Shown: one piece after another, positions 50,811-57,360 of the stretch
Layout of the letters: each line of letters starts with the position of its first letter
Numbering within the stretch: the stretch's first letter is position 1
Sequence record: PQ516281
DNA: 64,000 nt
Reading direction: 5' to 3' (one strand)
Origin: Escherichia phage vB_EQ1
Program-made: the position numbers and the translations under genes
Notes under the pieces: model-generated
What the model was told of the DNA's origin: nothing
Seen by the model: the letters and a program-made list of their open reading frames with translations, nothing else
The model's database searches: none

Positions 50811-51359
50811 TTAACGAGCCCATTTGATGATTTCTGTAATCAAATCATTACGTTCGCTTGCATTAAATCCTATAACTTTGTTAGCACCATCATGATTAAG
50901 TAATTGATACGTTTGGATTTTGTTATGAATTGCAAACTCTTCAAAATGTGAAATGACTGTATTAAAACCGAATGAAGACAAAGTAATAAGGTCGTCTTCA
51001 AAACTTTCAGTCATTTCGTTACGTGTTAAAATAATTGTGAACACATCATGGTTTTGGCAAAGACGAATATAATCCTGTTCATAAACGTCAAGAACCGAAT
51101 CCGCATCTTGTCGAATACGTCCATAAACCCAGTTACTAATATATCCACGGTCTAACAGATAAATCTTAGTAGGGTCTAAATAATTCAACATCGTTTCGAA
51201 ACAGCCAACTTCATTTCGAGACTTAACATCGAAACGTCCATCAACTGTTCGTTTAGGGAAATCAATCTTTACATATCTTTCACTAATTTCCATTATGTCA
51301 TTAATGAAAGTTGTTTTACCAGCATTATCTGGGCCATCTACTAAAATAATTTTAGCCAT
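50811..51359 (-). CDS. P-loop kinase-like protein (Walker A GPDNAGKTT)
   Basis: 182 aa MAKIILVDGPDNAGKTTFINDIME...; sits where T4 has beta-gt; first gene after the modification cluster. Confidence 0.55.
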   Translation of the reverse strand: MAKIILVDGPDNAGKTTFINDIMEISERYVKIDFPKRTVDGRFDVKSRNEVGCFETMLNYLDPTKIYLLDRGYISNWVYGRIRQDADSVLDVYEQDYIRLCQNHDVFTIILTRNEMTESFEDDLITLSSFGFNTVISHFEEFAIHNKIQTYQLLNHDGANKVIGFNASERNDLITEIIKWAR

Positions 51360-51360
51360 T

Positions 51361-52260
51361 TTATTCCTCGATTACGACATCTTCGTATTTAGGTATATTA
51401 TACGGCGAAGAAATTAAAGCGTTAAAGTAGATGAACTCACCAAGACCTGGATGGAATACTTCTTCAGGATTTTCGAAATATTGAATCTTCGGACGTCCTT
51501 TAAGAATTTGATAGTACTCAGTTTTAGTTGGATTAAAAATTCGAATCAGCGCTTCTTCAGGATACTTATTTCTGTCGAAACTATTATTTGGATCAGTTAT
51601 ATAAAGCGGTTGACCTAATTGAATTGCGCATTCAACAACTTGTTCAAAACGATAGCATGGGTCACTAATTCGAAATGGATGAAAAATACCATCTAGATGA
51701 ATAGGAGCCAAATCACCTACAAGACGCTGCATGACGGAAGGACGTATAACTTTCTGCGTTACGATAATCTTATTACCATCTGCACCTGCGTTAACCAGCA
51801 CTTCTTTTTGACGTTCATTCAACACAGTAGTTTGAAGTGAACGATTAACCGACAACATGTCGGTTTTTAAGAATTCGTCAATATAAAAACGTGGTTTATT
51901 AGGGTCTGCAGTGATATTGAAATTGAATTCTACGTCAAAAGCGCCATCATATCCAGTGATATCTGTGATTAGAAAATCACAATCATAATAAGCAATTAAT
52001 GAATCAACCACAAATTCATTTTCAGACCAGAAATATTTACGAGTGTTATACGCGTTATCTTTATACCATAATGGAACAAACTTAAATTCTGGGAAAAGAC
52101 GTTCACATTCTTTAATATCAGATGCATTACGTGGATATGTAATCACATCGCCTGGATTAGCACGGTGCAAATGAAGTTGGAAGTTGCCATCCTTAAGGAT
52201 AGCATACTGTCCAGTTTCATAAGACCGCATACTCAAAATAGGTACGCGGAAAATAGCCAT
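51361..52260 (-). CDS. hypothetical protein (modification cluster member)
   Basis: ORF track 299 aa; 1-nt gaps to both neighbours. Confidence 0.6.
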   Translation of the reverse strand: MAIFRVPILSMRSYETGQYAILKDGNFQLHLHRANPGDVITYPRNASDIKECERLFPEFKFVPLWYKDNAYNTRKYFWSENEFVVDSLIAYYDCDFLITDITGYDGAFDVEFNFNITADPNKPRFYIDEFLKTDMLSVNRSLQTTVLNERQKEVLVNAGADGNKIIVTQKVIRPSVMQRLVGDLAPIHLDGIFHPFRISDPCYRFEQVVECAIQLGQPLYITDPNNSFDRNKYPEEALIRIFNPTKTEYYQILKGRPKIQYFENPEEVFHPGLGEFIYFNALISSPYNIPKYEDVVIEE

Positions 52261-52976
52261 TAGTCAAGAAACCCTTTAACATAATCAAAATCACGTTCAA
52301 ACACATGGGCACTTACCATGGTATGAGTATAATCACCAACTTCTACACCACATTCGTTAGCGATATAATGAAGTAATTTTCCTTGGAGATAAAAATCCAA
52401 CTGCATAACAACAGCACAGTTCTGAGAACGCATATGACAGTGGGTATAAAGCTTACCATCGCGAATATAATAAGTCACTGAGTCAGTACATGGATATTCA
52501 AGCGTTTCGTCCGAATCAAGCAAAGCCTGATCAGAACTTTCTAGAATTTGGAACACAACTCTTCGAGAGTTAGGCTTCTCTTTAAGTTCTTTTAGAAGAG
52601 CCGGTAATTGGGCCGCAATGCGAGGACCGTAGAAAGTGTTGAAGTTTGCAGGCAAAGCGTCTGATTTAGGTTTAGAAATAAATTTAGCGACATTAGGATA
52701 TGCCTTAAACGCTTCTTCTGCATCAGTACCACCAGAAATCATAAACTTCCAGAAGTCTTCGGCATATTCATAAGAGATGCGGTTAATACGTGGGTCGGTC
52801 ATTTTGAATGATGATGGAGTGTCAACAACTACTGTCATAGACCCAATTTCATTACAACGTCCAATACGAGAATCAGTTACGAATTCCGGGTTTTCTAAAA
52901 TTTCACGATTGACTGCTTTAAATGCGGTTTGAAAATCTGCGGCTTTGATATATTTCATTGTGTTATGTTTTCCCAT
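52260..52976 (-). CDS. 42: deoxycytidylate 5-hydroxymethyltransferase (gp42-like, thymidylate synthase fold)
   Basis: 238 aa; ...NSRRVVFQILE...CTDSVTYYIRDGKLYTHCHMRSQNCAVVMQLDF... parallels T4 gp42 ...SRRGIMIY...CTNTVQYLIRDKKINAVVNMRSNDVVFGF...; GAGGT SD. Confidence 0.75.
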   Translation of the reverse strand: MGKHNTMKYIKAADFQTAFKAVNREILENPEFVTDSRIGRCNEIGSMTVVVDTPSSFKMTDPRINRISYEYAEDFWKFMISGGTDAEEAFKAYPNVAKFISKPKSDALPANFNTFYGPRIAAQLPALLKELKEKPNSRRVVFQILESSDQALLDSDETLEYPCTDSVTYYIRDGKLYTHCHMRSQNCAVVMQLDFYLQGKLLHYIANECGVEVGDYTHTMVSAHVFERDFDYVKGFLD

Positions 52977-56543: not shown

Positions 56544-56585
56544 GTTGTGGTCCTCATTGGTAAGTAGGAGTATTGTACACTATTC

Positions 56586-56729
56586 TAGTTAAAGCATTCA
56601 TACTTTGCTTGTAGTCCAATCATAATCCATCCAATTACAAGTGTTGGAATCATTACTGGAGCCGTTAAGCTCCAGTAGATAGTCATGACAAGCATCAATA
56701 GTAAAAGTCCTATTGTTATTGCTTTCATT
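56586..56729 (-). CDS. small hydrophobic membrane protein (about 47 aa), possible Imm-like
   Basis: Hand translation: MKAITIGLLLLMLVMTIYWSLTAPVMIPTLVIGWIMIGLQAKYECFN; ATG overlaps stop of the SIS gene; below ORF-track cutoff. Confidence 0.45.
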
Positions 56730-57360
56730 GTTCGCCTCGTAACATGGCACCTAGTGCACCGCCAGGGTGGAACTTAAGGAAGTCATTAGAGGTAAATCCA
56801 CGTTCAGACGAAAGGTTGATAGCAAACGTATCGATAAGCGCTAACAACAATGTAGTGGACATAGTCGGAGCCAGAGAATTCTCATCAACTTCTACCGCGA
56901 TGCCTGTACAGAAAGAGTAATCAAAAAGGGCTTCGTATTCTTGTGGAATGTCTGGGTTACAATGCAACAGAATCTGTTTGACGTTCGGGCGAATCATTTT
57001 AAGATGCTTAGCCACGCCTATCATTTCTTCAGTTTTACCAGAACGACTAATATGAATCAACACATCATTAGGCGCAATAAATCCTGCATCACCGTGAGAA
57101 TAATGCCCAGTGTTCAAGTACATACTCGGGATACCGAGTGAAGCAAATGTCTCAGACGCTTTAGTTGCAATATTAGCATTCTTACCAACACCTGTAATAA
57201 TTACTCGGCTTTCATAATTACTAAGTCCAGGGCGTCGAAGAGTTTCTAGAATAGCATTATAACGAGCAGGGTTTTGACTAATTACTTTGGCCATAGCGGC
57301 CAAAGAAGAAGCTTGTTTTATGATTGCGTCAATAGCGATAGTAATAGGAGTAGTTTTCAT
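56725..57360 (-). CDS. SIS-domain sugar-phosphate isomerase (KdsD/GutQ/GmhA-like)
   Basis: 211 aa; VIITGVGKNANIATKASETFASLGIP, HISRSGKTEEM (SIS SxSGxTxE) and C-terminal FHPGGALG; directly downstream of gene 43. Confidence 0.75.
   Translation of the reverse strand: MKTTPITIAIDAIIKQASSLAAMAKVISQNPARYNAILETLRRPGLSNYESRVIITGVGKNANIATKASETFASLGIPSMYLNTGHYSHGDAGFIAPNDVLIHISRSGKTEEMIGVAKHLKMIRPNVKQILLHCNPDIPQEYEALFDYSFCTGIAVEVDENSLAPTMSTTLLLALIDTFAINLSSERGFTSNDFLKFHPGGALGAMLRGEQ

Follow-up and report, generated by a model that had tools for sequence, protein, structure and literature searches.

The nine genes between uvsX (49540-50712) and gene 43 (57401-60112) in Escherichia phage vB_EQ1 very probably make up the Mosigvirus (RB69-type) cluster that replaces the cytosine of virion DNA with mono- and di-arabinofuranosyl-5-hydroxycytosine. 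The DNA analyzed was a stretch of 64,000 nucleotides (nt) from sequence record PQ516281, here called the window, and the cluster occupies its positions 50811 to 57360. Both the cluster and the pathway are already known (Thomas 2018; Mahler 2025; He 2026; Lee 2026). In RB69, the base is beta-D-Araf-(1-3)-alpha-D-Araf-5-hydroxy-dC (Araf, arabinofuranose), with an ether link via the C5 oxygen, as determined by nuclear magnetic resonance (NMR) and mass spectrometry (MS) (Lee et al. 2026, PMC13326640). A second, independent Mosigvirus, phage NP, contains 5-ara-dC and 5-ara-ara-dC (PMC13390438). An earlier note made from the letters of the window had proposed that, for hypermodification of its DNA, the phage makes a nucleotide-arabinose donor not produced by E. 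coli, and the chemistry of RB69 and phage NP supports that proposal. The acceptor named there, 5-hydroxymethylcytosine (hmC), has to be replaced, since the RB69 acceptor is 5-hydroxycytosine (5hoC) with an ether bond (PMC13326640, PMC13390438).

The ORF list of the window places nine tightly packed open reading frames (ORFs) on the minus strand of this interval, exactly where the earlier note had located nine co-oriented genes. Neighboring ORFs are separated by a few bases or overlap, several of them by 1 to 16 nt. The features of the proposed pathway, including two outside the nine-gene interval, are as follows (aa, amino acids).

56725-57360, minus strand: predicted SIS-domain arabinose-5-phosphate isomerase, 211 aa, RB69 gp55 orthologue
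56585-56728, minus strand: hydrophobic peptide, 47 aa, RB69 gp54 orthologue
54858-56543, minus strand: predicted bifunctional kinase/nucleotidyltransferase, 561 aa, RB69 gp52:53, AfhE analogue
54472-54873, minus strand: predicted HAD-type phosphatase, 133 aa, RB69 gp51, AfhF analogue
53254-54414, minus strand: Peptidase_U32-family protein (hereafter U32), probable Fe-S protein, 386 aa, RB69 gp50
53018-53257, minus strand: small protein, 79 aa, RB69 gp49
52260-52976, minus strand: thymidylate-synthase-fold 5-hydroxy-dCMP synthase, 238 aa, RB69 gp48 orthologue
51361-52260, minus strand: GT-B fold glycosyltransferase, 299 aa, RB69 gp46:47
50811-51359, minus strand: thymidylate-kinase-like P-loop nucleotide kinase, 182 aa, RB69 gp45
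29444-30541, minus strand, outside the nine-gene interval: putative second arabinosyltransferase, RB69 gp3/ORF003c orthologue, located by tblastn
42219-42737, minus strand, outside the nine-gene interval: gp56 dCTPase/dUTPase, by similarity to RB69 gp56

Over the whole interval, the identity to Escherichia phage MRostami-2023e is 100%, and the nucleotide identity to RB69 positions 24047-30598 is 98.0%; together with the polymerase, the interval identifies the window as a Mosigvirus by sequence. RB69 gp45 to gp55 correspond one to one and in the same order to the nine ORFs and form the closest known system, to which the HY126 Afh genes, Bas46/Bas47, Serratia phages LC53 and 92A1, and Acinetobacter phages DLP3 and Maestro are related. 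The window resembles RB69 in gene set, gene order, the signature of the thymidylate synthase (TS)-fold hydroxylase, the GT-B fold, and the location of gp3 and gp56 elsewhere, with strain-level divergence only. In contrast to DLP3/Maestro, PspYZU05, and Dhakavirus Bp7, its cluster includes the U32 and 79-aa genes. Conservation of the region extends to 209 phage records, 151 of which cover at least 80% of its length, and chance therefore does not explain the nine-ORF layout. Both the 299-aa gene and the 561-aa gene are whole here, while the old RB69 record splits gp46/47 and gp52/53 through sequencing errors; the single 561-aa ORF agrees with the corrected RB69 sequence.

The base branch centers on the 238-aa protein, which matched Pfam Thymidylat_synt (E = 2.4e-15) and is nearly identical to PDB entries 9IQC, 9IR2, and 9IQU (E = 4.5e-162). 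Aligned in E. coli ThyA numbering, it keeps C146 and carries L143E, N177D, and D169N, which is the signature of 5-hydroxy-dCMP (5hodCMP) synthases (C146, L143D/E, N177D, D169N), whereas T4-type gp42 keeps D169. Its identity to true gp42 is approximately 25%. RB69 gp48 together with the dNMP kinase gp159 puts 5-hydroxydeoxycytidine (5hodC) into E. coli DNA, and gp48 incorporates 18O from 18O2 and binds FMN (PMC13326640). The gene had been described from sequence alone as a gene-42-like hydroxymethylase; the D169N, N177D, and L143E replacements and the activity of RB69 gp48 indicate instead a flavin- and O2-dependent 5hodCMP synthase. Upstream of this step, the gp56 orthologue (97.1% identity to RB69 gp56; Pfam dUTPase_2, 1e-06) would remove dCTP and supply dCMP, a role taken from the T4 paradigm. 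The TS-fold enzyme would then hydroxylate dCMP at C5 with flavin and O2 to give 5hodCMP, as demonstrated for RB69 gp48. A T4-type dNMP kinase, whose gene lies outside the window, followed by the host NDP kinase (a host step assumed from the T4 paradigm), would yield 5hodCTP, which the polymerase would insert into DNA.

This scheme is like the glucosyl-hmC pathway of T4 in its dCTPase, TS-fold modification of dCMP at C5, dNMP kinase, and glycosylation of the new hydroxyl. The genes also occupy the same slot, uvsX to gene 43, where Tequatroviruses have imm, gp42, and a glucosyltransferase, a contrast that the earlier note had drawn correctly. In contrast to T4, hydroxylation is flavin and O2 dependent rather than a folate-dependent hydroxymethylation, the sugar is ether linked directly to the ring, the phage makes its own donor, UDP-Araf, and the transferases are unrelated in sequence. 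A T4-type glucosyl-hmC pathway does not fit the window, in which the TS homologue has N169 and is so distant from gp42-type proteins. No glucosyltransferase gene was found within the interval, alpha- and beta-gt not having been searched for in the rest of the window; RB69 has no alpha- or beta-gt (Thomas 2018, PMC6024577).

A different chemistry, also the 2018 proposal, would make the TS-like gene a gp42-type dCMP hydroxymethylase and would lead from free arabinose through NDP-arabinose to arabinosyl-hmC. Arabinose was detected on RB69 DNA by Thomas et al. (2018), who reported ara-hmC from high-performance anion-exchange chromatography (HPAEC) and matrix-assisted laser desorption/ionization (MALDI) data and proposed gp55 and gp52:53 for UDP-arabinose synthesis (PMC6024577). 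The 238-aa protein and gp42 both belong to the thymidylate synthase family, and the TS-like gene occupies the position of gp42 in Tequatroviruses. In Table 1 of Lee et al., the phosphatase step is still given as arabinose-5-phosphate (Ara5P) to free Ara, at odds with their own text (PMC13326640). However, this chemistry is already refuted for RB69, where NMR and MS place arabinose directly on the C5 oxygen and gp48 yields 5hodC of 243 Da, not 5hmdC, with 18O from O2; PMC13390438 terms the earlier hmC assignment erroneous. The asparagine of the window protein where gp42 has aspartate, its low identity to gp42, and the 1,5-bisphosphate through which the HY126 enzymes are reported to work also argue against it, and we consider it highly improbable for the window. 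The arabinosyl-hmC that the earlier note had mentioned for RB69-like phages agrees with the report of 2018, later revised.

The donor of the arabinosyl-5hoC pathway would come from three proteins that were all detected by profile, namely, a SIS isomerase, a kinase/nucleotidyltransferase, and an HAD phosphatase, and the same domains had been named in the earlier note. The 211-aa isomerase matched Pfam SIS (5.7e-10), PHROG 5670 (E = 3e-116), and the NCBIfam models KpsF/GutQ (2.7e-32) and KdsD (1.2e-30), of which only positions ~47-202 of 328 were covered; it consists of the SIS domain only, without the CBS domains of KdsD/GutQ. It would convert ribulose-5-phosphate to Ara5P, a role proposed for the SIS isomerase in PMC13326640. 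The N terminus of the 561-aa protein matched NTP_transferase (8.8e-10, residues 3-99), sugar-1-phosphate nucleotidyltransferase families (to 6.9e-14), and PDB 1JYK (2e-05). Its residues 308-409 gave weak APH, fructosamine-kinase, and RIO-type matches (E = 0.002-0.03), all under the cut-off; an APH-fold kinase had been suggested as the fusion partner of the nucleotidyltransferase. The 133-aa protein matched NCBIfam TIGR01689, a capsule biosynthesis phosphatase (6.9e-13), and HAD-IIIA (0.03), both under curated cut-offs, as well as PHROG 1238 (1.7e-42).

As relayed in PMC13326640, HY126 AfhE (kinase plus pyrophosphorylase) and AfhF (phosphatase) take Ara5P through Araf-1,5-bisphosphate and Araf-1-phosphate to UDP-Araf. 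If the window proteins are their orthologues, as their sequences suggest, the C-terminal kinase domain of the 561-aa protein would form Araf-1,5-bisphosphate from Ara5P, the HAD phosphatase would take off the 5-phosphate to leave Araf-1-phosphate, and the N-terminal nucleotidyltransferase domain would convert this to UDP-Araf. The free sugar through which the earlier note had drawn the route has no place in the sequence relayed for HY126.

The same sugar genes could be read as an auxiliary metabolic module for the remodeling of polysaccharide on the host surface, their siting beside nucleotide genes being coincidental. Ara5P is a precursor of 3-deoxy-D-manno-octulosonate (KDO), the best named families are KdsD/GutQ/KpsF for the isomerase and the EcbF-BcbF capsule phosphatase for the HAD protein, and public annotations carry the names kpsF and glmU. 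However, the DNA of RB69 and phage NP carries arabinose, and a transferase reaction that depends on UDP-Araf has been demonstrated with RB69 DNA (PMC13326640). The sugar genes also stay linked to the TS-like hydroxylase, glycosyltransferase, and kinase genes across Straboviridae genera whose hosts (Acinetobacter, Pseudomonas, Shewanella, and Enterobacterales) and host surfaces differ. Taken together, these observations leave a role in surface polysaccharide with scarcely any probability, lower still than that of arabinosyl-hmC.

For transfer of arabinose to 5hoC, the earlier note had offered only a 299-aa unknown. This protein has a GT-B fold and is presumed to be the first (alpha) arabinosyltransferase; a PDB sequence search with it gave no match. 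Its gene adjoins the hydroxylase gene, and a second glycosyltransferase gene lies near rIIA. This second gene, the gp3 orthologue, has 99.2% identity over 366 aa to RB69 gp3 by tblastn, and a role as second arabinosyltransferase has been proposed for gp3 (PMC6024577, PMC13326640). The GT-B protein would thus add the first arabinose to the 5-hydroxyl, and the gp3 orthologue would add the second. The 182-aa protein, noted before as a P-loop kinase, matched PHROG 761 "thymidylate kinase" (1.9e-45) and gave a weak dTMP kinase match; RB69 gp45 is a "nucleotide kinase" in Table 1 of PMC13326640. From its similarity, this thymidylate-kinase-like (Tmk-like) protein may phosphorylate a modified dNMP. 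Its gene adjoins that of the first transferase in every lineage and in the siphophage modules described below. The T4-type dNMP kinase already phosphorylates 5hodCMP, and a dedicated Tmk-like kinase would make sense if the first sugar were added at the mononucleotide stage.

Several points weigh against the arabinosyl-5hoC assignment as a whole. The first arabosyl transfer has not been reconstituted, and single DLP3 transferases were inactive on 5hoC DNA; Lee et al. left open whether the first-sugar acceptor is the mononucleotide or DNA (PMC13326640). Four of the nine genes (Tmk-like kinase, U32, and the 47-aa and 79-aa genes) are without a demonstrated role, and the kinase-domain and HAD matches fall under curated cut-offs. 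The enzymology of HY126 AfhE and AfhF is second-hand, via PMC13326640, and arabinosyl-5-hydroxy-dC in the virion DNA of vB_EQ1 would follow from 98% identity to RB69.

Other features of the locus concern its names, neighbors, and small genes. Public labels are misleading: the RefSeq record of RB69 (L001) calls the HAD phosphatase a "phosphoheptose isomerase" and the U32 protein a "peptidase," and 5hodCMP synthases are named "thymidylate synthase" or "dCMP hydroxymethylase." The imm gene lies at 45780-46025, about 5 kb from the interval in which T4 has it, and in Bp7 and PspYZU05 the sugar genes still have it immediately upstream. Serratia phage LC53 (L003 3354-3992) and Edwardsiella phage PEi26 (segC; L016 1-333) carry homing-endonuclease genes inserted in the space from the HAD phosphatase gene to U32, and mobile endonucleases appear to target the cluster. 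The 47-aa product, recognized earlier as a membrane peptide, is visibly hydrophobic and matched PHROG 3610 (E = 6.8e-27), and the ORF at its position in LC53 is annotated as a transmembrane segment. Counts of sigma-70 promoters and terminators did not exceed those in shuffled sequence (26 versus 26.6 and 3 versus 3.7, respectively) and are uninformative on transcription units. Base composition across the cluster was unremarkable.

Because the only demonstrated route to phage 5hoC needs O2, we examined the U32 protein (53254-54414) as an O2-independent counterpart. We tentatively propose, at slightly less than even confidence, that it is a prephenate-dependent, O2-independent Fe-S hydroxylase that places the 5-hydroxyl on a cytosine deoxynucleotide or DNA, and that its subfamily marks an unrecognized hypermodification module of deoxynucleoside triphosphate (dNTP) pyrophosphatase, nucleoside monophosphate (NMP) kinase, GT-B transferase, and U32, without a TS-like enzyme. 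All characterized U32 proteins are linked to hydroxylation that depends on prephenate and not on O2. RlhA forms 5-hydroxycytidine in 23S rRNA (ho5C2501), TrhP forms 5-hydroxyuridine in tRNA (ho5U34), and UbiU/UbiV hydroxylate ubiquinone precursors with prephenate as the oxygen donor. TrhP/TrhO and UbiUV/UbiIHF are anaerobic/aerobic pairs that give the same product, and by analogy the phage U32 would provide an anaerobic route to the base that the TS-fold enzyme makes in air. The phage locus is like these pairs in having U32 beside an O2-dependent enzyme for the same reaction type and, in related phages, genes for prephenate supply.

The 386-aa protein, described in the earlier note simply as Cys rich, is indeed so and can now be assigned to the Peptidase_U32 family (PF01136, 7.3e-11; 42.2 bits against a gathering cut-off of 22.4). 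Its AlphaFold2 model (pLDDT 91.8) gave as the top PDB match in Foldseek the U32 protein Mk0906 (5D88; E = 3.6e-07; TM score of 0.69 normalized to the target), and the matches beyond 5D88 were generic TIM barrels; a PDB sequence search gave no match. Ten cysteines (C158, C177, C192, C203, C209, C233, C340, C345, C349, and C352) are 98-100% conserved in 121 homologues, enough for two Fe-S clusters. With RlhA, TrhP, UbiU, and UbiV, the protein shares PF01136, the U32 TIM-barrel fold, and, in a MAFFT alignment with the E. coli proteins, the motif Glu and the first and third motif Cys (C192 and C209). However, it is only 14-23% identical to them, and the position of C176 of RlhA/UbiU is Gly in the phage subfamily, which has invariant C203 and C233 instead. 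The cysteine pattern is CX10CX5CX23C in phage U32 versus CX6CX15-16CX3/4C, or CX6CX16CX38C in UbiU. The phage proteins have in addition a C-terminal cluster (C340-x4-C345-x3-C349-x2-C352) and two further conserved cysteines, and the C-terminal regions that are associated with RNA in RlhA and TrhP are missing from them; they would act on a deoxynucleotide or DNA. The correspondence of ligands rests on the MAFFT alignment, and given Gly at the essential C176 position, the ligand set would be a variant, as yet unproven. When the subfamily alignment was compared by hhalign with single E. coli UbiU and TrhP sequences, only weak N-terminal alignments were obtained (probability of 5-14%), which cannot map the cysteine ligands.

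The published account of RB69 gives its gp50 a table entry, "sugar or heterocycle reductase," without discussion; the words U32, peptidase, prephenate, and chorismate are absent from its text, and the RlhA paper is cited there as an "unrelated" hydroxylation pathway, with the family membership of gp50 unremarked (PMC13326640). No literature linking U32, RlhA, TrhP, or chorismate mutase to phage DNA modification was found in a search that did not extend to He et al. 2026 and Mahler et al. 2025, in which the idea may already have appeared; the paper of Lee et al. is later than these two.

A possible source of prephenate lies next to U32 in related phages. Enterobacter phage Entb_45 and Serratia phage LC53 each encode a CM_2 chorismate mutase (40.9 and 44.6 bits; cut-off of 27) whose gene overlaps the stop codon of U32. 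By tblastn, chorismate mutase was found between U32 and the TS homologue in 51 phage records, all of which belong to U32-bearing genera. Ten sister Straboviridae genera encode this small AroQ-type enzyme between U32 and the 5hodCMP synthase, and in Shewanella phage Thanatos-1 the cluster is rearranged, yet U32 and chorismate mutase still adjoin. A divergent copy occurs in a Proteus phage (49.5 bits). The copies on the comparison loci are as follows.

L002 5658-5897: phage chorismate mutase
L003 5160-5504: phage chorismate mutase
L012 6983-7240: phage chorismate mutase
L022 3899-4285: phage chorismate mutase

No chorismate mutase was found in any frame of the window, and Mosigviruses are without it, so they would have to use host PheA/TyrA. 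At one metagenomic locus (L023), a 3-deoxy-D-arabino-heptulosonate 7-phosphate (DAHP) synthase directly follows U32 (2.6e-70, versus 2.9e-17 for KDO8P synthase). A neighboring chorismate mutase or DAHP synthase points to prephenate use by U32. Phage-encoded chorismate mutase as a source of prephenate was unmentioned in the literature examined.

The 79-aa ORF, whose start overlaps the U32 stop by 4 nt, was tested as a chorismate mutase because sister phages carry one at that position. It gave no Pfam match to AroQ (CM_2) even at an E value of 10 and scored 0.2 bits with a phage chorismate mutase hidden Markov model (HMM), with which 1000 shuffles reached 11.7, and this candidate was rejected. 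The ORF belongs to PHROG 8601 and is homologous to small ORFs between U32 and chorismate mutase in Pectobacterium phage PM2 (8e-13) and Yersinia phage TG1 (2e-12); the PM2/TG1 copies of this small-protein family are as follows.

L018 1325-1498: small protein of the 79-aa family
L019 1272-1469: small protein of the 79-aa family

By analogy with E. coli UbiU/UbiV, which act with the accessory factor UbiT, the 79-aa protein may be a U32 partner.

Within phages, U32 was found in 221 records, with all copies at least 81% identical, and the listed hosts are Enterobacterales or Shewanella, all facultative anaerobes. It was absent from Acinetobacter phage records and from one Pseudomonas phage, although these share the TS, glycosyltransferase, kinase, and sugar genes, and also from the E. 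coli Dhakavirus Bp7. Counted by genus, this host pattern fits facultative anaerobes; it is confounded by phylogeny and suggestive only.

Homologues with 50-58% identity extend the subfamily to 114 clusters at an E value of ≤1e-30 and 720 at ≤1e-10. At 11 metagenomic loci, for which 12-19 kb of each contig was examined, they lie in phage replication/nucleotide-metabolism modules, and several of these loci are siphophage genomes of 44-60 kb that encode a DnaE-type polymerase along with tail, holin, and terminase proteins. Seven of the 11 have a homologue of the 299-aa transferase of the window directly upstream of U32 (phmmer E = 1e-11 to 1e-17) and, before that, a Tmk-like kinase homologue (profile E = 1e-6 to 1e-8); most of the seven have a MazG/dUTPase_2 pyrophosphatase, the Pfam family of gp56, ahead of the kinase. 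A profile of seven phage 5hodCMP synthases detected no TS-like gene in the 12-19 kb of any of the 11 loci. The siphophage modules would thus copy the T4 logic of base replacement (gp56, gp42, gp1, gt), with U32 in the hydroxylase position, and are probably an undescribed glycosylated-base pathway. On L025, L026, L028, L029, and L030, the pyrophosphatase, Tmk-like kinase, transferase, and U32 genes are contiguous and lie beside a DnaE-type polymerase and RecA. The low G+C of these uncultured siphophages hints at low-G+C hosts, possibly anaerobes, although the hosts are not identified.

Two of the metagenomic loci combine U32 with further sugar genes. L023 encodes a SIS isomerase homologue (6.5e-21) and a 561-aa enzyme homologue (1e-43); it is a cassette of the arabinosylation type that has the entry enzyme of the shikimate pathway and, in the stretch examined, no TS-like hydroxylase. 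Its positions 2289-9804, on an 80-kb phage-like contig, hold in order a histidine phosphatase, a kinase-like gene, the transferase homologue, the SIS isomerase, the 561-aa homologue, U32, DAHP synthase, and an RmlD-like epimerase. On L024, U32 is directly followed by a TET-associated glycosyltransferase (TAGT), near a UDP-galactopyranose mutase; around U32 (4777-13179) are also a DXD glycosyltransferase, a homologue of the 299-aa transferase, and a dCTP deaminase/dUTPase. The mutase recalls Rhizobium phage RL38J1, which puts galactofuranose on 5hoC. Like the TET/JBP plus TAGT cassettes of phages, L024 pairs a candidate for the hydroxyl handle with glycosyltransferases. However, TET enzymes are Fe(II)/2-oxoglutarate/O2 dioxygenases acting on 5-methylcytosine in DNA, while U32 is predicted to be an unrelated Fe-S TIM barrel, and the window, unlike those cassettes, has no TAGT. 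At five metagenomic loci, a radical SAM/SPASM protein, which could be a maturase or a second modification step, is encoded within a few genes of the U32 homologue, as follows.

L007 1-249: radical SAM/SPASM protein
L008 12160-13185: radical SAM/SPASM protein
L025 4980-6011: radical SAM/SPASM protein
L026 4972-6000: radical SAM/SPASM protein
L027 1681-2628: radical SAM/SPASM protein

There is an even chance that U32 is not a base hydroxylase, and that it acts on a sugar or other heterocycle, is a protease or maturation factor, or hydroxylates a different substrate. The reductase label of Lee et al., the first naming of the family for a collagenase activity, and the low hhalign probabilities would all be in line with such a role. 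So would three observations that weigh against a base hydroxylase: the noncanonical Cys motif with Gly for the essential C176, the E. coli Dhakaviruses that manage without the gene, and the sufficiency of gp48 alone for 5hodC in air. Two more count against our proposal, in that direct hydroxylase activity was undemonstrated for any U32 enzyme as of a 2024 PNAS paper and that a TS-like gene could lie elsewhere on the metagenomic contigs, given the 12-19 kb examined per contig. However, two of the functionally characterized U32 systems, all of which are tied to prephenate-dependent, O2-independent hydroxylation, act at pyrimidine C5, and the adjoining chorismate mutase or DAHP synthase indicates prephenate use. 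U32 also recurs with a glycosyltransferase, an NMP kinase, and a dNTP pyrophosphatase at phage loci with no sugar-nucleotide or TS-like genes in the 12-19 kb, where a sugar-modifying role would be without an obvious substrate pathway.

The cluster finding re-derives from raw sequence a pathway that was established experimentally between 2018 and 2026; it bears out the approach of the earlier note but adds nothing new to biology. The follow-up contributes a specific hypothesis, cheap to test, on the role of a gene that had none assigned in a model phage, and it points to a wider, uncharacterized phage module. If the U32 proposal is true, this protein would be the first U32 enzyme known to act on DNA precursors and would extend hydroxylation with an "organic O-donor" to viruses, and U32 beside this glycosyltransferase family and a Tmk-like kinase would be a sequence marker for new glycosylated bases in phages of anaerobes. 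It would also bear on restriction and CRISPR evasion, the host range of phages used in therapy, and the enzymatic synthesis of modified DNA. The gut in which RB69-like phages of E. coli replicate is for the most part anoxic, yet O2 is required by the one route to their modified base that has been demonstrated; a prephenate-using phage U32, if confirmed, would account for maintenance of the modification in the absence of oxygen.

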